Part shown: positions 5,667-47,914 of the stretch, in pieces | Layout: each line of letters begins with the position of its first letter | How positions within the stretch are numbered: the stretch's first letter is position 1 | IMG/VR virus record: IMGVR_UViG_3300023180_000017 | Reading direction: 5' to 3' (one strand) | Origin: a virus | Length of the DNA: 64,000 nt | Notes under the pieces: generated by a model | Told to the model about the DNA's origin: nothing | The model's database searches: none | The model's input: the letters and a program-made list of their open reading frames with translations, nothing else | Translations under genes and position numbers: made by a program

Positions 5667-7012
5667 CCTTTGTTATAACAGCACAACATTGTATTCCTCA
5701 CGGTGGCATAGGACAGTTCTGTAAATCTTTTGTCGATATGGCAAAAGAACTAGAATGGGCTGTTCATATTATATTGGATAAGGCTCCTGCTAAAAGTAGC
5801 TTAGTAGATTACTTACAAGAACAAGATAACGTCAACCTTTTTTACAGTCAAGGAACACAGCAATACACCAACCACAACAAGACATTCGTGTTTGAAGACA
5901 CAATGAACTTTGAACGTATGTTAAACGTTAGGGCCAATATGTTAGATGCCTTAGAACGTAACATATATGATATGGTGTTAATTAACAGCCCTGATGCTGT
6001 ATCCACAATTTACAACTTAGGCTTACAGCGCTTTGTACCTGTAGTCTTTTACACTCATTCAGAAAACTTTATCTTTTTAGAAAAAGGTGCTAATAAGGTG
6101 TTTAGTGAGGCATGCGTATATTATATGCAGAATCTCCTACAATTACCCGGTTTAACAATCGGAACACAAACTTCACTAAACACCAAGCACATTCAGGAAA
6201 ACTTTAACCTCAAATCCGTAGCTTTGCCTATGCGGGTTCCAGAACTACAGCTTTTGTTCAATGTCGACGTTGAAAAGGAAGGGGTGTTGTTCACAGGACG
6301 TTGGGAACCACGCAAGAACCCCAAAGTATTTTGTGACGCCGTAATAGAAATGGACGTCCCAGCTAAGGTACTTACAAATGCTAAAGGTAAGGAAAAGTTT
6401 GAGGCATACTTTAAAGAGCATAACTTTACCAAGTATGAAATACGGGCAAGCATAATTGGGCAGGAGAAGGTAGACTTTATACGAAGTGCTAAAATAGCAT
6501 TTCACCCAGCACAGTTGGAGTCATTTGGCTTTAGTGCTTTTGAGAGTTTACACTCTTGCCCAACCTTTTGCTTGGAAAAGTATGATTGGTGGAACAACTT
6601 TGCAGGACTTGTAGTTCCACTAGGCAACGACTATGTTGAGGAATTAAAAAGTGCATATAACACAGATGATCTAATGTATGAGGGGCGACTCAGAACCCTA
6701 TATAGCATAGATCAATATACTATAAAATCCTGGAAAGAATTTGTAGAAACAGATTCCTATGCAGGACAAAGTAATGTGGAAAATGCTCTTACAAAAGCAG
6801 TAGATGAAAGTGAACAGAGTTTTGGATTGTTACACTATTATTTGAACATATTAAAAAGACAAAGTATTGCAATAGATGATGTTCATACTGTTTATAAGAA
6901 ACAAAGTCAAATAACTTTAACACAATTATTGGAAGATACATATATAACTAAACAAGGAAGTGAATTCAACCCTATGGTTGAAGAAACTACATCATTGGAG
7001 GATTTATTTTGA
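5648..7012 (+). CDS. GT-B glycosyltransferase (GT4-like)
   Basis: HGGIG N-terminal loop, LFTGRWEPRKNP, ESFGFSAFE (E-x7-E). Confidence 0.85.
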   Translation: MFKRKIAFVITAQHCIPHGGIGQFCKSFVDMAKELEWAVHIILDKAPAKSSLVDYLQEQDNVNLFYSQGTQQYTNHNKTFVFEDTMNFERMLNVRANMLDALERNIYDMVLINSPDAVSTIYNLGLQRFVPVVFYTHSENFIFLEKGANKVFSEACVYYMQNLLQLPGLTIGTQTSLNTKHIQENFNLKSVALPMRVPELQLLFNVDVEKEGVLFTGRWEPRKNPKVFCDAVIEMDVPAKVLTNAKGKEKFEAYFKEHNFTKYEIRASIIGQEKVDFIRSAKIAFHPAQLESFGFSAFESLHSCPTFCLEKYDWWNNFAGLVVPLGNDYVEELKSAYNTDDLMYEGRLRTLYSIDQYTIKSWKEFVETDSYAGQSNVENALTKAVDESEQSFGLLHYYLNILKRQSIAIDDVHTVYKKQSQITLTQLLEDTYITKQGSEFNPMVEETTSLEDLF

Positions 7013-25999: not shown

Positions 26000-26608
26000 A
26001 TGAAAGCATTGCTTCTTGGGTGTGGGTCTAAGTCTGGATTGTACTTAGCCCACGCCCTAAAAGAATATTACAATGAACTGCACATTGTTACAAGTTCTGA
26101 TCCAGATATACAAGCTAAGATAATTAAAGTCAATTGGCAGGATATTTGTATTGAGGAATTGTTACAAGAGCTTGATAGTGAATACGATTTAGTTTATTAT
26201 AATCAAAACTGTTGGGGAGGACCTAATCAAGGAGCCTTCGATGCCTTTATTGCTTTAGAACAAGAATGGACAACAGGACTGTCAATAAACTGCTACTTGC
26301 CGTATCGTATATCACGTGAAATAAAATCTGATAAAACTATTTGGGTGACCTCTCCCTTTACAAGAATAAAAAATAGGGAATCGTTTGGTGGTAGTGAAAT
26401 GGCAGGGTATGCTAGCTATAAATCTACTATAATGCACCTTATGTTTTCTTTTGCGAAACATTCGGAAGGCATACATGTTGGTTACGAGCCACATCGTGTT
26501 ACTTTACATGAGAATTATGCCAAACATGTTGCTAAAGTTTTATTTGAATTGGATGAAGAATTCAACGGCAAGGTCATCAACGAAACCAAAAGTATAATGG
26601 AAGTATAA
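26000..26608 (+). CDS. Atypical short-chain dehydrogenase/reductase-like protein
   Basis: LLLGCGSKSG Rossmann-like start, YASYK (YxxxK). Confidence 0.6.
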   Translation: MKALLLGCGSKSGLYLAHALKEYYNELHIVTSSDPDIQAKIIKVNWQDICIEELLQELDSEYDLVYYNQNCWGGPNQGAFDAFIALEQEWTTGLSINCYLPYRISREIKSDKTIWVTSPFTRIKNRESFGGSEMAGYASYKSTIMHLMFSFAKHSEGIHVGYEPHRVTLHENYAKHVAKVLFELDEEFNGKVINETKSIMEV

Positions 26609-27723
26609 TGTGGGAATATGATAAAATAACGTCTTTGAACATTGAAGCATCTAGTCTCTGTAATGCCGAATGTCTTTTTTGTGCTAGATTTGAGGATCGA
26701 GGTTCTCCAAATTTAAATCCTAATATAACACTAACCTATATTAAAGCAGAAGACTTTAAAAATTGGCTATCTATAGAATTTCTTTCAAAGATCAATCACA
26801 TAACATTTTCTGGGGATTACGGAGACCCTATGACAAACCCAGAAATTATAGAAATACTAGAATATATCTTTGAAGCCAATCCAACAATGGTTGTAAATTT
26901 ATGTACCAACGGTGGAATGAAAAATACTGATTTTTGGACAAAACTTGGCAATGTAATGAAAAAAGATTCTAGACGTACTGTTACATTTTCCATAGACGGA
27001 TTAGAAGACACCAATCACTTATATCGAAGAAAGGTAAAGTGGGATAAGGTGATGGAAAATGTTAAGGCTTATTTAGATACCGGCGCTAGTGCTTTATGGG
27101 ATTTTTTAATCTTTGGATACAATGTACATCAAGTAGAAGAAGCTAAAAAATTAGCTGACGAACTTGGCTTTACAAAGTTCTATGCCAAAAATGCTAATGG
27201 CATGGGCGGAGAAGGAAATTTAATTGCTAAGGATAAGGAAGGTAATACACTTTATGAAGTAGAGCCCGCTCCAACATCAGTAACCTTTACTGAACGTCCT
27301 ATTGTATTCATAGGTATGGCAGAAGATCTGAATTACGAGAATATGAAGGAACAATATGAAACTAGATATAAGGATGAGCCAGGAGAGATTAAATGTTTTT
27401 CTGCAAGAAGTGGAAATCAGGAAATACGAATCAGTGCCTGGGGAGATGTACACCCATGTTGCCACATAGGAGCTTTTACAAGAATAGGATTTAAGTCCTC
27501 ACAGATCCTAAAAGTTCAAATCAAACATTACATGGACAAGCATGAGCTGTCTTTACACAAAAGACCCCTCAAAGAGATCCTAGAAAGCAAACCTTTCCAG
27601 TGGTTTGAAGACTCTTGGCAAGAGAAAAAATGTGCTATTTGTTGGAATTTGTGCGGTGTAAATGAGCAGAAAAAGACCCTCATGAACAGTATATTTGGCG
27701 AGGGAGACTACGGTAAGTCCTAA
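26608..27723 (+). CDS. Radical SAM protein with C-terminal SPASM/Twitch domain
   Basis: CNAECLFC, GDYGDP, TNGG, FSIDG, GDVHPCC, CAICWNLC. Confidence 0.9.
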   Translation: MWEYDKITSLNIEASSLCNAECLFCARFEDRGSPNLNPNITLTYIKAEDFKNWLSIEFLSKINHITFSGDYGDPMTNPEIIEILEYIFEANPTMVVNLCTNGGMKNTDFWTKLGNVMKKDSRRTVTFSIDGLEDTNHLYRRKVKWDKVMENVKAYLDTGASALWDFLIFGYNVHQVEEAKKLADELGFTKFYAKNANGMGGEGNLIAKDKEGNTLYEVEPAPTSVTFTERPIVFIGMAEDLNYENMKEQYETRYKDEPGEIKCFSARSGNQEIRISAWGDVHPCCHIGAFTRIGFKSSQILKVQIKHYMDKHELSLHKRPLKEILESKPFQWFEDSWQEKKCAICWNLCGVNEQKKTLMNSIFGEGDYGKS

Positions 27724-28194: not shown

Positions 28195-28857
28195 TTGTTT
28201 ACACATAATTTGGTAGAGATACCACAACTTAAACAGGTTAATACTGAGAACGGGCGGAGATATGTTACTCCGTCCGGGACTCAATATCCATCTGTTACAA
28301 CTATTTTATCTCATAAGTCTAAGCCATACATTCAAGCTTGGCGTAAAAGAATAGGCGAAAAAGAAGCAGATAAAATTAGTAGACGTGCCACAACTCGTGG
28401 TACAAAGATTCACAAACTTTGCGAAGACATTCTTAATAATGAATTGACTGAGGATACAAACCTCAATTATATTGATAAGGAAATGTTTCGTAAGTTTCGC
28501 CCTTTGTTAGATGATATTGATAATATCAGAGCAATCGAGGCAAAAATGTATAGTGATCATTTACGTCTTGCAGGACAGGTTGACTGTATTGCAGAATATA
28601 ATGGTAAACTATCTGTAATTGACTTTAAAACGTCAATGAAACCAAAAAGCAGAAGTCAGTGCGAAAATTATTTTATTCAATGCTCTGCCTATGCTATAAT
28701 GTTTGAGGAAAGAACAGGAATACCTGTTTCTCAATCAGTCATTCTTATGGCTGTTGAAGGCGAAGAGCCAATAGTGCATGTTGAAAAACGTGATAACTAT
28801 GTAGAAAAATTGCTCAACGCTAGAGACAGTTATGAGACTGAAGTTATAAATAACTAA
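28195..28857 (+). CDS. PD-(D/E)xK exonuclease
   Basis: YPSVTTIL, RGTKIH, AGQVDCI, IDFKTS, QCSAYA. Confidence 0.9.
   Translation: MFTHNLVEIPQLKQVNTENGRRYVTPSGTQYPSVTTILSHKSKPYIQAWRKRIGEKEADKISRRATTRGTKIHKLCEDILNNELTEDTNLNYIDKEMFRKFRPLLDDIDNIRAIEAKMYSDHLRLAGQVDCIAEYNGKLSVIDFKTSMKPKSRSQCENYFIQCSAYAIMFEERTGIPVSQSVILMAVEGEEPIVHVEKRDNYVEKLLNARDSYETEVINN
28845..28852 (+). promoter_or_regulatory. Late promoter for tmRNA
   Basis: TATAAATA immediately upstream of the tmRNA acceptor piece. Confidence 0.7.
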
Positions 28858-29171
28858 TCTGATGAAACGGACTGAAAAGGTATTTGGACGTGGGTGCGAT
28901 TCCCACCACCTCCACCAGATATGTATTTGTGTATTTGTAACAATGTAAGAGAGGGTGATACAGAAAAGTATCACTTAATTGGAACAAATTGTGGTAAGTG
29001 CATATCTGATGGGGGTGAACAGGTTCGACAAGTGCTCAGTAGGAAAGTGGAGGATCGGTGTGCAAGCGACCGTAACCGTAATGAAACACAATAAATGCCA
29101 ACGATGAGGTATTTTCTCTGGCTGCTTAAGCTAGACGGGGTAAGGGTTCCACCTTGTTATCAAACGGGCCC
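28858..29171 (+). ncRNA. ssrA: Circularly permuted two-piece tmRNA; tag ANDEVFSLAA
   Basis: Acceptor piece first: GAC-GTGGG-TGCGATT-CCCAC-CACCTCC-A-CCA ending 28917. Coding piece starts GGGGGTG at 29011 and pairs with CACCTCC including G3-U70. Tag frame 29097-29129 after ATAAAT. Terminal pseudoknot 29134-29171. Outer ends approximate. Confidence 0.92.
28921..29094 (+). CDS. Minimal Bfd-like [2Fe-2S] motif peptide starting in the tmRNA intervening segment
   Basis: MYLCICNNV...GTNCGKCI resembles Bfd (MYVCLCNG...GNQCGKCV); 30 codons lie in the IVS, 57 aa if read through the precursor; no RBS. Confidence 0.5.
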   Translation: MYLCICNNVREGDTEKYHLIGTNCGKCISDGGEQVRQVLSRKVEDRCASDRNRNETQ

Positions 29172-29204
29172 AATTTGACACACACATACACACAGGAGGT
29201 TATT

Positions 29205-29478: not shown

Positions 29479-29985
29479 ATGAAGTATTTTTTATCATTTT
29501 TAATTCTAATAGTAGCAGCGCCATGTTCTAGTTCGGCACAGGTTACAAGTGTAAACTATAATGAAATAGAATGTTTGGCAAGAAACATTTATTTTGAGGC
29601 AAGAAATCAATCCCTAAGAGGAAAGATTGCAGTAGGACAGGTTACAATGAATAGAGTTAGATCTAGTAACTATCCTAATACAGTTTGTGGTGTCGTTTAC
29701 CAGGCAGAATATAAACCAAGTTGGAAAACAGGGAATCCCGTTCCAGCTAGGAATAGATGCCAATTTAGTTGGTATTGCGACGGCAAGCCAGAAAAAATAC
29801 TTGATATGAAAACATGGGAGCATTGCTTTATGTTGGCTGAACTCTTAATTCATGGCAAATTACAAGAACCAATAGCACATGAAGCAACTCATTACCACGC
29901 CGATTATTCTAATCCTAGGTGGGCTAATTATATGCAGACAACGGGAAAGGTAGGCAACCATATTTTTTATAAAACGTTTGACTAA
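29479..29985 (+). CDS. SleB/CwlJ-type cell wall hydrolase
   Basis: Signal peptide; CLARNIYFEAR, VTMNRV, PNTVCGVVYQ, CQFSWYCDG, ATHYHA, GNHIFY. Confidence 0.93.
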   Translation: MKYFLSFLILIVAAPCSSSAQVTSVNYNEIECLARNIYFEARNQSLRGKIAVGQVTMNRVRSSNYPNTVCGVVYQAEYKPSWKTGNPVPARNRCQFSWYCDGKPEKILDMKTWEHCFMLAELLIHGKLQEPIAHEATHYHADYSNPRWANYMQTTGKVGNHIFYKTFD

Positions 29986-30012: not shown

Positions 30013-30891
30013 ATGAACTACTCAGAAGTACCCAACGTCATTGTAACCGGCGGGTGTGGATTTATAGGATCCCATTTAGTGGAAAGACTTCTTTATGAAG
30101 GCTTTGTTGTTACAGTTATTGACGATCAAAGAAGCGGAAGGACGGTTATAAATCATCCTAATGTTAAATATCACTTCTGCGATGTAGTTAAATTCAATCC
30201 TTATGTGTCTAATGTACAACCACCAACTGCTATATTTCATATGGCAAATAGTCCGAGGGTTAGACGTTCGTTAGACTATCCAACAGAAACAATTGCTAAT
30301 AATGTTGTAACAACAGCAGTCGTATCTGATTGGGCTAGGGTTATGAATTGTAGGTTGTTCTTTGCGACTTCATCTAGCACAAAGTATAAGGAATCTAAAA
30401 ATCCATATACTTGGAGCAAGTCTGTTTGTGAGGATTTATTAGAATTGTATAAGGAAACATACGGTTTAGTTTATACAAAGCTATTCTTTTACAATGTATA
30501 TGGACCTAGAGAAGCAGACTACGGTGAATATAGCACAGTCGTAAGAAAGTTTAAAATGGATTACTTAGCAGGAAATCCATTAACGGTATATGGTACAGGA
30601 AAAAAAGAAAGAGACTTTACACATGTCTTTGATGTTGTTCAAGGTCTCATGCAATTGTTAGTAGACGAGAGAGATCTTCAGGAAGTACATCTAGGCAAGG
30701 GGTATCCTGTTACTATCAATTCTATTGCAGAATGTTTTCCTTGTACTGTTATAAATGCTTTTGATAGACCTGGCGAGGCTCAAAGAACTTTTTGTGAAAC
30801 CCCTTATATAGAATGCCCAACAGATGTACATGCCTATATAAGACATTGGATCAAGGAGAACCCAATTGATCACGCTAATCGTGAACAATAA
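30013..30891 (+). CDS. NAD-dependent epimerase/dehydratase
   Basis: TGGCGFIGSH, YTWSK, FYNVYGP, RDFTHV. Confidence 0.9.
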   Translation: MNYSEVPNVIVTGGCGFIGSHLVERLLYEGFVVTVIDDQRSGRTVINHPNVKYHFCDVVKFNPYVSNVQPPTAIFHMANSPRVRRSLDYPTETIANNVVTTAVVSDWARVMNCRLFFATSSSTKYKESKNPYTWSKSVCEDLLELYKETYGLVYTKLFFYNVYGPREADYGEYSTVVRKFKMDYLAGNPLTVYGTGKKERDFTHVFDVVQGLMQLLVDERDLQEVHLGKGYPVTINSIAECFPCTVINAFDRPGEAQRTFCETPYIECPTDVHAYIRHWIKENPIDHANREQ

Positions 30892-31162
30892 AAAAGAAGA
30901 TTTGAAAGAAACAAGAATATCAGATGTTTTTCTTATTACAAAGGAATTCAAAACATCTACAGAATTTTCACAATTCATTGAAAAGAAATCATACCAAACA
31001 GGACTTACTTGTATGGATGTGATACTTGACTATTGTGAACGTAATGAGATTGAAGTTGAAAGTGTAAATAAACTTCTTAGCAGTTCGTTAAAAGAAAAGG
31101 TTAAAGCAGAAGCTCAAAGCCTTAACATGCTAAAGGAAAAGGAAAATCAACTACCTATTTAA
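30866..31162 (+). CDS. gp33: Late transcription coactivator gp33
   Basis: FSQFIE...MDVILDYCE..EIEVESV.KLLS.SLKEKVKAEA..LNML; gp33-gp59-gp32 synteny. Confidence 0.85.
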   Translation: MITLIVNNKKEDLKETRISDVFLITKEFKTSTEFSQFIEKKSYQTGLTCMDVILDYCERNEIEVESVNKLLSSSLKEKVKAEAQSLNMLKEKENQLPI

Positions 31163-31163
31163 A

Positions 31164-31772
31164 ATGGATCCCTTCGATGTTTACAAGTTATATCTAGCTC
31201 TAAAACTTCACTTTACAACTGAAGGCTATGATATACAAAAACATAAAGGTGCTGTAAGAGGCAAAAAAGAAACTTTCTTAAAAAGAAAGGACTTAACGTC
31301 AATTAGAAAACTAGCACGGGATTACAAAAGAAGTGAAATTATAGATCTTCTTGTTGCTAACTTTGTTAGTGGTGACCGTTGGGGAGGAATGTTTGATGCA
31401 GAGTCCTCAGAACGGTACAAAAGATGGTTGACAAAACAGGAAAGATTGTTATATAATGTTTCTGCAGACTTAGATAAAGTCCTATTCCGCATGGAAAAAG
31501 ACAATATAAATTCTGCAATATATGATGATGGGCACCCGCTTATTTTAAAGATGTTCATGGGTGGTGAAATCGAATTAGAGACGCTAGTAGTTCTTGAAAA
31601 ACTTTTACCATTTATATCTCAATATAAGGATGACTTTGTTTTACAAGATATATGCTTACTCGTTTCTAAATATAGGCCCTTTGTTAAATTTGATAAAGAA
31701 CGTGTTTTTGAAACACATAAGCATAGATTGAAACAGGTGTATGGGAATGTCCAAATCACGACGCCAAACTGA
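31164..31772 (+). CDS. gp59: Helicase loader gp59
   Basis: VYKLYLALKLHFT..YD, VANF, GHPLIL, LETLV, KYRPF. Confidence 0.9.
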   Translation: MDPFDVYKLYLALKLHFTTEGYDIQKHKGAVRGKKETFLKRKDLTSIRKLARDYKRSEIIDLLVANFVSGDRWGGMFDAESSERYKRWLTKQERLLYNVSADLDKVLFRMEKDNINSAIYDDGHPLILKMFMGGEIELETLVVLEKLLPFISQYKDDFVLQDICLLVSKYRPFVKFDKERVFETHKHRLKQVYGNVQITTPN

Positions 31773-31976: not shown

Positions 31977-32885
31977 ATGGCTTTTAATTCACTATCTGAG
32001 CTACGTAAATCACGTGGCGGTTTCGACAAGTTAATGAACGAGGTCGAAAAAATCGCAAACCCTAGCCAGAGCAATTCTGGTGATGACAGGGAATGGAAAC
32101 CAACAGTAGACAAAGCAGGAAACGGCTATGCTGTTATTAGGTTCCTTCCTCCCTCCCAGGGTGAAGAGTTTCCGTGGGTACGTTTATGGAATCATGGATT
32201 CCAAGGACCTACAGGAAAGTGGTACATCGAGAACTCTCTCACTACATTGAACCAGAATGATCCTGTTTCTGAATTGAACAGTGAATTGTGGAACAGTGGT
32301 GTAGAGGCAAACAAGGAAGTTGCACGTAAGCAAAAGCGTAGACTAGCTTACTATGCCAATATTCTTGTTGTTCAAGATTCAGGCAATCCTGAAAACAATG
32401 GCAAGGTATTTCTCTTTAAATTCGGTAAAAAGATCTTTGACAAAATTAAAGATGTTATGCAACCGCAGTTTGAAGACGAAGCACCTATGAACCCATTTGA
32501 TTTTTGGGAAGGCGCTAACTTTAAACTTAAGATTCGTCAGGTTGAAGGTTACAGAAACTATGACAAGTCTGAGTTTGATGCACCTACAGCGATCGCTGAT
32601 TCAGATGAGGCTATTGAAGCAATTTGGAACAAACAGCATTCTTTACAAGAGATTGTTGATCCTAAAAACTTTAAGTCTTATGATGAGTTAAAGAAAAAAC
32701 TTAACATGGTTCTAGGAGCAGGCGCTACAGTCGGTACAGCAGAACAAGTGTCTAAGTTTACAGACGATGCTGAAGATGATCACTTCATGGAGAAGGTTGT
32801 CTCAGCTCAAAAAGTATCAGCTGTTTCTGATGATACAGATGAAGATGATACACTTTCCTACTTTTCTAAATTAGCAGAAGACTAA
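31977..32885 (+). CDS. gp32: Single-stranded DNA-binding protein gp32
   Basis: DKAGNGYAVIRFLP, HGFQGP.GKWYIENSLTT, GKKIFDKI, GANFKLKIR, acidic tail ending YFSKLAED. Confidence 0.97.
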   Translation: MAFNSLSELRKSRGGFDKLMNEVEKIANPSQSNSGDDREWKPTVDKAGNGYAVIRFLPPSQGEEFPWVRLWNHGFQGPTGKWYIENSLTTLNQNDPVSELNSELWNSGVEANKEVARKQKRRLAYYANILVVQDSGNPENNGKVFLFKFGKKIFDKIKDVMQPQFEDEAPMNPFDFWEGANFKLKIRQVEGYRNYDKSEFDAPTAIADSDEAIEAIWNKQHSLQEIVDPKNFKSYDELKKKLNMVLGAGATVGTAEQVSKFTDDAEDDHFMEKVVSAQKVSAVSDDTDEDDTLSYFSKLAED

Positions 32886-33486: not shown

Positions 33487-33563
33487 GCGCTCTTAGCTCA
33501 GTGGATTAGAGCAACGGTCTTCTAAACCGTAGGTCGGAGGTTCGAATCCTCCAGGGCGCGCCA
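33487..33563 (+). tRNA. tRNA-Arg (anticodon UCU)
   Basis: Cloverleaf; ACGGT-CT-TCT-AA-ACCGT; GTTCGAATC; encoded CCA. Confidence 0.95.
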
Positions 33564-33564
33564 C

Positions 33565-33651
33565 GCCTCGGTGGTGAAATTGGTAGACACAAGAGACTTA
33601 AAATCTCTCGCCCGTTTGGGTGTGCCGGTTCGAGTCCGGCCCGAGGCACCA
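33565..33651 (+). tRNA. tRNA-Leu (anticodon UAA)
   Basis: AGAGA-CT-TAA-AA-TCTCT; long variable arm; encoded CCA. Confidence 0.95.
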
Positions 33652-33656
33652 AATAT

Positions 33657-33732
33657 GGGACTGTAGCTCAATGGTTAGAGCATCCGTCTTATAAGCGGAA
33701 GGTCAGTGGTTCAACTCCACTCAGTCCTACCA
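33657..33732 (+). tRNA. tRNA-Ile (anticodon UAU)
   Basis: TCCGT-CT-TAT-AA-GCGGA; GGGACTG/CAGTCCT acceptor stem; A73; encoded CCA. Confidence 0.9.
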
Positions 33733-45829: not shown

Positions 45830-47914
45830 ATGGCATTAGAAATATTTGGTAGATATTTTACAGACACCGGGGGTGTGGGACTTACTGCCTCAGAAGCCGT
45901 TTCAATAAAAACAAGAAGTACACATAAAGACAATTCAATTGCATTTGCTGACGACTCGCCATATATAGCAGCAGGGTACAGCGATCAAGGTATTGATTTT
46001 GATAGTGATAATTTAGTCTACCTTGCTATTTCACCTGGTAGAGACGGTGTTGATAAATTTACATTGGAGACCTTTGAAAAAGTTCCAATGTTGTTACCTC
46101 CAGGTAGTGCTAACGGGAAAACCTATGAATTAGTTATAACTTTAACAGATAAAGACCCTGCAATAAGAGGAGCTCAACAGAAACATACGTTTAACATTGA
46201 CGAGGCATCACTAGGTAAAACAGGTAGTTGGTCTTTTCCTCACTTTGATACAATTGGTGGTAATGCCTTAAGAAAAAATTATTTTATTGACAGAGACCCA
46301 CCATATGCTCGTGGTGATAGAGGTTACCCAACAGAAGAAGAGGGAGGAAATTTTAATAATAATGTTATTAGAATTCCTCTAACAAAAGATTACAATCCTA
46401 ACAGCGATACAATAGAAAAGATAGGAGAGTTTTTCCTAAAACAAAGTGATGAACCTAGTGAGGGTATAAACACTTTACATTTTCCTACTCGGGGTTCTGA
46501 TCTTATAACTTATGTCTATTCAGACGGTGTGGTGGCTACTTCTCCAGAACAGGTAGCATTCAACTACTATATTGTTGAAACTGGAACAGATATTCCAATC
46601 GAAGAATATTATGATCCTGCTTTAGGAGTTAATGGTGGTTGGGATAATGCTTACGGTGCTAGGTTTAGAATTGTTAGAGAAAATGTAACTCCTCCACAAG
46701 GAAATGAAAGCAAAGTACCTGCAACTCCGATATTAGCCACAAATATTTATAGAGAACCTGAAAAAGTAATTAATCCTGACGGCACATATTCCCATTCAAC
46801 TATGGGCATTGCAGTAAATCTAAATCTACCAGACAATGGGTTTTTGGGACACGATCCTGCAACAGACGATCGTTACAAATTAGAATATATCTGGAGACTA
46901 GAGAAACAAGGAGGCAAGTCTAAACTTATAACCCTCAATAGTGGTTTTGCAAAGGTAGGCGGTAACTATCAATTATATGCTAAAAACTTTGATGCTGAGC
47001 AAGGAGGTTTCGGGTTAGGAACTTATATTAACACAATAACCCTTTATCTTGTATATACAGATGATAATGGAGATTCTTATTCTTCTGAAACAGCAGTAGC
47101 AAGAGACACTTTCAATGTAACAGAAAGAACAGCATCAGCACCGCCTCCAACATCGGGTCCCCCTCCAACATCGGGTCCCCCACCGGGCCCAGCTCCGTCA
47201 TTTTCAGGCGGCCCGTTTCAGATACAACCGTTAAGTGGTGCCTCAGATTGTGGTCCAGGAGATGGATTAAGAGATTTGGCTGATAAACTTGCAGCCGTTG
47301 AAGCATCAACAGATGCTTTATTAGCAACAGCAACTGATGGCATTGGTGATCTTTTAGACAGCATCAATAGTATTGTATCTAATGAGGTAAATAAAGTTAA
47401 GGGTTCTTTAGAAAGTATGATACCCGAATCCTTTAAAGGAGCAGCTAAAACATTTGAAGACGGAGTTAAGGAAGGATTAGAGCTTGCTGCTGTTGTGGCA
47501 GCTGGAGGTGAAGCCGCGATAAATGCTGCCTTAAAACTGAAAACTCTTGCAACAAAGTGGGAAGGTATTATTGATGGTTTGGGGGGTCTTATAGACAATG
47601 ATGGCAACCCAATAGAAACTTTTTATGATGTTATAACATTAATGCAGACGTTATTGAGGACAGGTGCTTCAGATTTAGATAGTTTATGTAAAATGTTACC
47701 CAATGTCTCTGAAAGCTACGATGGGTCTGTATCAGTTAAGGCTACTCCAATAACTATTCCTGAATTTGATGCCGTCGATTTAATTAAAGGATATGAACTT
47801 CCAGAGTTGCCAAAACCAACACTTATTATAGATGTTTCAGCTAAGAAAAAAGAAACAGTTGCTTCTTTCACAAACTTCCAAGCACCTAAACTTTATGGAG
47901 GACCAAAGGGTTAA
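45830..47914 (+). CDS. Large hypothetical, probably structural protein
   Basis: Beta-rich N-terminal region, PPPTSG linker, helical C-terminal region; between PAAR and gp25. Confidence 0.65.
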   Translation: MALEIFGRYFTDTGGVGLTASEAVSIKTRSTHKDNSIAFADDSPYIAAGYSDQGIDFDSDNLVYLAISPGRDGVDKFTLETFEKVPMLLPPGSANGKTYELVITLTDKDPAIRGAQQKHTFNIDEASLGKTGSWSFPHFDTIGGNALRKNYFIDRDPPYARGDRGYPTEEEGGNFNNNVIRIPLTKDYNPNSDTIEKIGEFFLKQSDEPSEGINTLHFPTRGSDLITYVYSDGVVATSPEQVAFNYYIVETGTDIPIEEYYDPALGVNGGWDNAYGARFRIVRENVTPPQGNESKVPATPILATNIYREPEKVINPDGTYSHSTMGIAVNLNLPDNGFLGHDPATDDRYKLEYIWRLEKQGGKSKLITLNSGFAKVGGNYQLYAKNFDAEQGGFGLGTYINTITLYLVYTDDNGDSYSSETAVARDTFNVTERTASAPPPTSGPPPTSGPPPGPAPSFSGGPFQIQPLSGASDCGPGDGLRDLADKLAAVEASTDALLATATDGIGDLLDSINSIVSNEVNKVKGSLESMIPESFKGAAKTFEDGVKEGLELAAVVAAGGEAAINAALKLKTLATKWEGIIDGLGGLIDNDGNPIETFYDVITLMQTLLRTGASDLDSLCKMLPNVSESYDGSVSVKATPITIPEFDAVDLIKGYELPELPKPTLIIDVSAKKKETVASFTNFQAPKLYGGPKG

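Follow-up and report, generated by a model that had tools for sequence, protein, structure and literature searches.

The tmRNA gene studied here, a permuted transfer-messenger RNA gene of a virus, probably carries a second gene within the segment that is removed when the RNA matures. It lies in the window (the whole 64,000-nucleotide stretch of IMG/VR virus record IMGVR_UViG_3300023180_000017), and the intervening segment (IVS, or spacer) between its encoded CCA and the mature 5′ end (G1) holds an open reading frame (ORF) of 30 codons. The encoded peptide, here called mini-Bfd, resembles bacterioferritin-associated ferredoxin (Bfd). Our reading is that a small-protein gene is nested in the tmRNA spacer and that the tmRNA precursor (pre-tmRNA) doubles as mRNA for a shortened Bfd. 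Judged from sequence, this reading is given a probability of about 0.6.

The tmRNA gene is on the plus strand; Rfam RF04321 (tmRNA_permuted) covers 28856-29129 from model position 1 to 213 of 213 with 110 bits, its gathering threshold being 47. RF01849 also matches the acceptor region (70 bits), and ARAGORN calls a permuted tmRNA with the tag ANDEVFSLAA, a tag frame at 29097-29129 and the resume codon GCC at 29097. The permuted order was confirmed. The acceptor piece (28856-28917; RF04321, RF01849 and ARAGORN) comprises a 5′ segment, the T arm, the 3′ acceptor strand CACCTCC, the discriminator A and CCA (28915-28917). It is followed by the 93-nt spacer (28918-29010), which the Rfam consensus lacks between CCA and GGGGGUG and which is absent from mature two-piece tmRNA. 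The coding piece (29011-29174; ARAGORN and Rfam) begins with the 5′ acceptor strand GGGGGTG (29011-29017, with G3-U), which pairs with CACCTCC, and its tag frame ends in A-A-stop. Excision of the spacer would be expected by analogy with the permuted tmRNA family (PMC11915505).

The spacer consists of GAT, an ATG at 28921 and 29 further sense codons without a stop, and the mini-Bfd ORF (MYLCICNNVREGDTEKYHLIGTNCGKCISD, 28921-29010) ends where the mature RNA begins (G1, 29011). The frame continues past G1 through a read-through tail of 27 codons inside the mature tmRNA (29011-29094) to TAA at 29092-29094, 2 nt short of the resume codon, and the uncut precursor would give a 57-aa product. The original prediction had described both the GAT-plus-30-codon spacer and the frame running on to this TAA; its coordinates and translation agree with the sequence, Rfam and ARAGORN. 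The RNase P site (before 29011) falls between codon 30 and the first in-frame stop, so that in sequence terms processing removes the stop.

Motif scans of viral and metagenome contigs recovered the same ORF between CCA and G1 in tmRNAs tagged ANDEVYEYAMAA, ANDDVYDYALAA, ANDDSYFEDFALAA, ANDDNYYQEFALAA, ANDNFADFEDYRLAA and ANDNFADMKMAA. At least ten phage tmRNA lineages with differing tags retain it. Besides the short class to which the window peptide belongs, there is a long class with more residues between the cysteine pairs, two copies of which (L096 and L142) are inside spacers. Eleven unique IVS ORFs of 90 nt, whose tmRNAs have at least seven different tags, were compared by codon position; 13, 9 and 28 sites vary at codon positions 1, 2 and 3, respectively, the last out of 30. 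The proportion of differences in the ORF frame was 0.65 at synonymous sites (pS) and 0.13 at nonsynonymous sites (pN), with a dN/dS of 0.096, compared with 1.10 and 0.73 in the other frames. Embedded copies are under the same constraint as free-standing ones (pN 0.133 and 0.130). It had been proposed that the spacer encodes a peptide and that homologous IVS be compared for frame, cysteines and synonymous bias. This comparison showed that frame and cysteines are kept, and the claim stands, with dN/dS at ~0.06 to 0.10 in frame and ~1 in the other two frames and with free-standing homologues in existence.

RNA structure fails to explain this codon pattern, since only the outer ~12 nt on each side are paired and the pairs are kept by synonymous changes. 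Capture of the ORF is old, as synonymous sites are near saturation between lineages with different tmRNA tags. Neither the 64-kb window nor 70 kb of the relative G001 contained a second mini-Bfd copy. On the codon evidence the spacer ORF is very likely a real, selected gene. In none of the lineages, at least ten in number, does a stop precede G1, which is always the first base of a codon in the short class. The read-through tails of relatives have 23 to 41 codons and differing stops and are not conserved as protein.

By profile comparison, the peptide is a shortened Bfd-type module and not a Pfam member. An alignment of 41 family members matched bacterial Bfd in hhalign with 97.5% probability (E 7e-12), with a 10- to 14-residue gap between the cysteine pairs. 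A search of the PDB with the family profile (hmmsearch) returned Bfd chains only (E 1e-6 to 2e-5), including Pseudomonas aeruginosa Bfd (4e6k_G, E 1.2e-6). The earlier assignment of a Bfd-like CxC...CxxC peptide is upheld by both results. Fer2_BFD was the top Pfam match for nine of ten family members, always under cut-off. All 41 members have M1, Y2, C4, C6, N7, G21, C24, G25 and C27, while position 5 is I or V; the four cysteines (C4, C6, C24, C27) are arranged C-x-C...C-x-x-C, as in Bfd.

M1, Y2 and L5 of P. aeruginosa Bfd fit a depression of bacterioferritin (Bfr) made by residues 68-72 and 78-81 (PMC12261321). When the 30-mer was modelled with a dimer of Escherichia coli Bfr, the interface score ipSAE was 0.72, compared with 0.00 for the best control, and M1, Y2 and I5 lay on Bfr residues 67-81, as in the solved complex 4E6K. 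Of 80 solved complexes 58 attained an ipSAE of 0.72, and of 110 mismatched pairs 2 did so. Contact agreement between runs was at least 94% and the pLDDT (predicted local distance difference test) of the partner was at least 80. The docking model speaks for likeness to Bfd-Bfr and not for binding; it may reflect memory of 4E6K, and E. coli Bfr is a stand-in. From sequence there is a moderate probability that the module works like Bfd, and the odds of a Bfd-like cluster with Bfr as target are judged to be even.

The original prediction described a 22-bp helix with one mismatch that buries the ATG, and RNAfold recovers it. The 5′ strand of this extended acceptor stem (28907-28928) contains ACCA, the GAT leader and ATG TAT TT, and the 3′ strand (28996-29017) contains ORF codons K26-D30 and tmRNA G1-G7. 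One of the 22 positions is a C/A mismatch and three are G-U pairs; the free energy of the hairpin is -45.4 kcal/mol. The stem was found in all 12 lineages folded, each time with the AUG inside it. Pairing is present in 96.8% of cells across nine lineages, compared with 36 to 56% when the partner is slid, and three stem pairs show compensatory changes. One of these (28920/29004, U-A to A-U) is a synonymous ATA to ATT change in the ORF. The ends of the excised spacer still pair with each other over 11 to 15 bp (RNAfold), and the AUG stays buried. The leader after CCA is 3 nt in 9 of 13 unique IVS and 7 nt in L096, L119 and L137.

A promoter-like site for the pre-tmRNA (28822-28852) ends 3 nt 5′ of the Rfam match. 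It consists of a -35-like GAGACA (28822-28827), a 17-nt gap and TATAAATA (28845-28852), and is a consensus match only. TATAAATA keeps a constant distance to the acceptor piece in seven lineages (the window, L001, L002, L005, L119, L137 and L142), usually with TTGAC(A/T) 17 to 18 nt upstream; OM43 phage Melnitz has TTGACA-17-TATAAAT at the corresponding place. The window contains 16 copies of TATAAATA against 9.7 expected, and a simple promoter and terminator scan revealed nothing above chance. Since the conserved promoter motif abuts the acceptor piece, the pre-tmRNA is taken to be its own transcription unit and the only plausible mRNA. In L002 (4170-4240), the promoter-like block (AAACAAAAGGTGTTAT-TATAAATA-CCTTGTT) is tandemly duplicated; it is single in L001 and L005. 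An upstream ORF (28862-28948) was considered as a coupling device and dropped, being absent in L024, L079 and L119. The frame shared by the mini-Bfd ORF and the 220-aa gene upstream is taken as a coincidence, as ~1 kb separates the two in L001-L007.

It is proposed that a dedicated promoter just 5′ of the acceptor piece drives the pre-tmRNA and that this RNA serves as mini-Bfd mRNA. Ribosomes would gain access only while the transcript is nascent or when the stem of a molecule is open. Loading would be possible on the nascent chain because the 3′ strand of the stem is transcribed 75 nt after the AUG, and would not be possible on the folded precursor or the excised spacer because their ends pair. 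A loaded ribosome would read past G1 to the TAA at 29092 and make a protein of 57 aa, the tail of which would be dispensable. If RNase P cut at G1 first, the ribosome would stall on the stop-less 3′ end and rescue by trans-translation would yield a tagged, short-lived peptide. A ribosome in the spacer would leave the 7-bp acceptor stem able to close, so that RNase P could cut at G1 and create a stop-less template. Both the 57-aa read-through product and the tagged 30-mer would be expected, and translation and tmRNA folding would be mutually exclusive on one molecule at one time. Most likely, mini-Bfd would hold a [2Fe-2S] cluster, dock on host bacterioferritin and mobilise stored iron during infection.

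Translation of the precursor has slightly better than even odds of being the main route. Competition between this translation and maturation, which the original prediction had offered as its alternative, is the favoured reading. Part of the product would probably be tagged, as a side fate, and a link between iron status and trans-translation is speculation.

The meaning of the missing stop was addressed by a survey of 205 unique phage permuted-tmRNA spacers of 60 to 150 nt (L168-L525). An ATG-initiated ORF of at least 20 codons is present in 82 of these (~40%), compared with 36 ± 5.6 in shuffles (18%), and nested ORFs occupy all three phases. Of the ORFs that continue past G1, 26 have a codon beginning at this base (phase 0) and 29 one base later (phase 1), with 17 of the latter stopping three codons into the tmRNA. 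A further 15 end at the TGA of a conserved TGAT, 1 nt before G1. These counts reject the idea that nested ORFs invariably have a codon beginning at G1. One hydrophobic-peptide family occurs in two phases, and the long-class mini-Bfd of L142 is in another phase. Many spacer ORFs carry a TAAGGAG-type Shine-Dalgarno sequence right after CCA. Families that recur across tags include MDFHWISWTKGEPFQWGDFRYN..., M(D/E)EVILWEFRK...ICINNYS... and the hydrophobic MF(E/D)xWHWxY(L/I)WGI.... In L371 and L307 the spacer ORF is in frame with the tag, and the uncut precursor would encode a protein ending in the tag peptide. In Melnitz (MZ577097.1, ~46078-46260; L166, 5079-5261), the 142-nt spacer has an unannotated, GGAG-led ORF of 41 codons (MFKWLSK...) that reads 13 codons past G1, homologues of which are kept in the related spacers L375, L406 and L475. 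Taken together, the surveyed sequences indicate that the spacer serves small genes generally as a slot and that these genes end at the first stop met. The missing stop of mini-Bfd looks like a consequence of phase and stem and not design, because an in-phase stop at codons 28-30 would break a stem pair.

Mini-Bfd genes also occur outside spacers. A search with the family profile gave 274 clusters among 1.8 billion representatives, mostly of 35 to 90 residues. Free-standing homologues are present in dozens of viral contigs; those of the short class, known from many contigs (for example, L023, L032, L052, L066 and L069), have no tmRNA nearby, and the majority of family contigs (> 40) are far from any tmRNA. 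Free-standing copies have their own stop, and either a Shine-Dalgarno sequence or a TAATG stop-start overlap. Their tails after the last cysteine are of 7 to 45 residues (7 to 37 in the short class) and are not conserved. Long-class genes are directly upstream of permuted tmRNAs in L030 (1444-1605), L036 (4468-4628, minus strand), L041 (4483-4665) and L086 (6178-6345), and also in L049 and L098. These genes run with their last codons into the 5′ edge of the acceptor piece, and the spacers of these tmRNAs are short or ORF-free. In a tree of tmRNA bodies (short alignment, branch support not assessed), mini-Bfd spacers appear in at least four separate places. L030 and L036 are among spacer-bearing relatives, and L119 and L137 are beside Melnitz-type tmRNAs, which have the same stem and a different ORF. 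This distribution suggests cassette-like exchange and a preference of the mini-Bfd gene for the tmRNA transcription unit. A motif scan of bacterial genomes found ordinary Bfd genes only, with no tmRNA nearby. That the gene came into the spacer with the tandem duplication behind the tmRNA permutation is unsupported, as a scan for one-piece tmRNA with the gene upstream of G1 gave noise only.

Some members of the family have unusual contexts. In L094 (5391 downward, minus strand), a short-class module without its own stop runs in frame into a 500-residue helicase-like ORF (CGKC-K-METLII...), as a fusion or a stop-less copy, and P0050 and P0115 have further N-terminal fusions of the module. Around 16 contigs (L027, L037, L040, L044 and others) share an identical 25-nt block, GCCCCCACCTATTATAGAGGTCTTT, upstream of a long-class gene; no tRNA or tmRNA was detected at this block in these contigs. 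The 8.5-kb viral contig L049 has two permuted tmRNA genes (579-877 and 6532-6902, minus strand) with the tags ANDEVYDLAIAA and ANDDIYSLAA.

Other explanations have to be weighed against translation of the precursor. According to the principal model of the original prediction, RNase P and 3′ processing would free the 93-nt spacer as a near-leaderless, stop-less mRNA, all of whose peptide is tagged (with ANDEVFSLAA) by the same tmRNA. A self-referential, ArfA-like circuit would result, with the amount of peptide reporting trans-translation capacity. ArfA shows that a functional gene can be expressed through an mRNA that processing has left without a stop (PMC3989581). The absence of a stop before G1 in all lineages, the fixed short-class phase, the lack of a Shine-Dalgarno sequence and the AUG 3 nt after CCA in most unique IVS would all fit, as would the stem base pair that an in-phase stop would cost. 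However, the paired ends of the excised spacer bury the AUG, three lineages have the 7-nt leader, and long-class L142 is in another phase. The surveyed ORFs likewise occupy all phases and many have normal stops, either just before G1 (15) or three codons after it (17), and one family uses two phases. An LAA tag leads to proteolysis, which is hard to square with selection equal to that on free-standing copies. Exonucleolytic 3′ trimming, as established for tRNA processing, would leave no intact spacer. Because the spacer is a general slot without selected stop loss, this model is lowered, not removed, and is now considered quite unlikely as the main route. It is improbable, too, that the position of the stop is functional, such that through RNase P cleavage at G1 the untagged share would report, ArfA-like, the balance of tmRNA maturation, trans-translation and translation. 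In a stronger form of this circuit, LAA-tagged peptide still docked on bacterioferritin via M1, Y2 and I5 would be a degron adaptor that delivers the iron store of the host to ClpXP, and ribosome rescue would be coupled to the release of iron.

The gene may instead be real and expressed as proposed and its product be a four-cysteine knuckle for zinc or iron that has a different target, perhaps connected with tmRNA or the ribosome; the position of the gene in or next to tmRNA genes would then be accounted for. For the window peptide, zinc_ribbon_6 (E 0.005) outranks Fer2_BFD (E 0.049), and the module falls 14 residues short of any Bfd. Free-standing copies overlap the tmRNA 5′ edge in L030, L036, L041/L049/L098 and L086, and with mini-Bfd spacers at four or more places in the tmRNA tree, linkage exceeds the need of an iron gene. 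Nonetheless, homology at the profile level is specific to Bfd, the invariant residues go beyond the cysteines to include the Bfr-contacting M1 and Y2, and more than 40 family contigs have the gene away from a tmRNA. A spacer that is a general slot for unrelated small genes also means that position need not imply function, and a knuckle of this kind is regarded as rather unlikely. A very improbable explanation is that the ORF is not translated in the spacer and owes its conservation to RNA structure, very recent capture or gene conversion from a paralogue. The sequestered AUG without a Shine-Dalgarno sequence would suit this, the genomes are 42 to 48% complete (CheckV) and may have a second copy, and chance alone would give ~36 of the 205 IVS an ORF of 20 codons or more. 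Variation at 28 of 30 third positions against 9 second positions, with only the outer ~12 nt at each end in the stem, argues against structure; near-saturated synonymous sites across differing tags make the capture old, and neither the window nor the 70 kb of G001 has a second copy.

Several observations count against a nested, translated gene for a shortened Bfd. No single sequence reaches the Pfam PF04324 gathering cut-off of 26 bits: the window 30-mer scores 14.4 bits, the 57-mer 10.7 and the best member (L042) 25.2, compared with 30 to 48 for bacterial Bfd controls. Cluster binding is not assured because 17 residues separate the cysteine pairs in the window class, and 21 in the long class, where Bfd has ~31. 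The ~31-residue helix-turn-helix between the cysteine pairs of Bfd has no full counterpart in mini-Bfd, which is ~14 residues shorter. The AlphaFold2 monomer of the 57-mer was unusable (pLDDT 48, 45-row alignment). For ribosome loading, the ORF has no Shine-Dalgarno sequence and a paired AUG, although strong AGGAGG-type sites are present at neighbouring phage genes. The gene is dispensable, since sister phages with an empty spacer have no mini-Bfd in the available 65 to 80 kb. DNA and protein queries (the tmRNA region, the 30-mer and a long-class member) found no cultured carrier among 50,697 phage records.

The surrounding genes place the window, by sequence, as a marine or estuarine T4-like myophage of the Melnitz/HTVC008M group. 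This assignment is made because its gp32 is 56 to 59% identical to that of Melnitz and of Pelagibacter phage HTVC008M and because the same gene order flanks the two-piece tmRNA of Melnitz. Upstream of the tmRNA is a PD-(D/E)XK nuclease gene (28195-28857), and downstream are genes for a cell-wall hydrolase (29479-29985), an epimerase (30013-30891), a late-transcription coactivator (30866-31162), gp59 (31164-31772) and gp32 (31977-32885). A radical SAM/SPASM enzyme, which depends on an Fe-S cluster, is encoded 1.2 kb 5′ of the tmRNA (26608-27723). A tRNA cluster at 33487-33732 comprises Arg-TCT, Leu-TAA and Ile-TAT, the first two of which are retained in the relatives L065, L067, L082, L083 and L091. 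Syntenic viral contigs L001-L007 retain the 93-nt spacer and its 30 codons; in the sister clade (L008-L012) the spacer is 29 to 64 nt and ORF-free.

The tmRNA spacer has so far been treated as discarded RNA, and a selected gene there would mean that the precursor of a stable RNA is also an mRNA. Around 25 nt would double as coding sequence and processing stem, a compact regulatory layout in which translation and RNA maturation must compete on one molecule. The 274 clusters of minimal Bfd-like proteins represent a phage family and a candidate iron-mobilising auxiliary gene in iron-poor waters, and these proteins may be the smallest natural scaffold that holds a Bfd-type cluster. At such loci, gene-calling and RNA-annotation programs would each mask the other's feature; the spacer ORF of Melnitz is unannotated.

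The closest known systems are the two-piece tmRNAs of the marine T4-like phages Melnitz and HTVC008M (PMC9004378; RF04321, RF01849, RF01850), which have the same order of acceptor piece, spacer and coding piece. Synteny covers the PD-(D/E)XK nuclease, tmRNA, late-transcription coactivator, gp59 and gp32 genes, a promoter abuts the tmRNA gene and an extended acceptor stem closes the spacer. In the papers on these phages the spacer is removed RNA only, whereas that of the window is a selected protein gene; the Melnitz paper (PMC9004378) does not discuss the spacer and no coding sequence is annotated there. The ORF in the Melnitz spacer is of another family than mini-Bfd and, unlike that of the window, is led by a Shine-Dalgarno sequence. 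In a 2025 tmRNA database paper, a tRNA-Ala gene and a repetitive element are the sole spacer contents mentioned (PMC11915505), and nothing relevant on ORFs in permuted-tmRNA spacers or on phage Bfd-like genes was found in the papers that could be searched.

Bfd itself (PF04324; P. aeruginosa 4E6K) shares with mini-Bfd the N-terminus M-Y-(L/V/I)-C-(I/V)-C-N, the motif G-x-x-C-G-K-C and the cysteine order. Mini-Bfd differs in having 30 residues (27 to the last cysteine) instead of ~64 to 73, in lacking the C-terminal helix, and in being phage-borne.

E. coli arfA is a functional gene whose mRNA is made stop-less by cleavage at a hairpin and whose product is tagged by tmRNA (PMC3989581, PMC10107115). 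It shares with mini-Bfd a stem at the 3′ end as nuclease substrate, cleavage that removes the stop and a product that would be a tmRNA substrate. For mini-Bfd, the nuclease would instead be RNase P, acting at a tRNA-like end, and the mRNA would be the precursor of tmRNA itself. The uncut transcript of the window has a usable stop, and the comparative data do not single out stop loss as selected. The IVS of Coxiella burnetii 23S rRNA, with its S23p gene, is likewise an ORF in a stem-closed spacer excised from the precursor of a stable RNA (PMC4990558). That IVS is regarded as selfish and its S23p protein is apparently not made (PMC4990558), whereas the window ORF is under purifying selection equal to that on free-standing genes.

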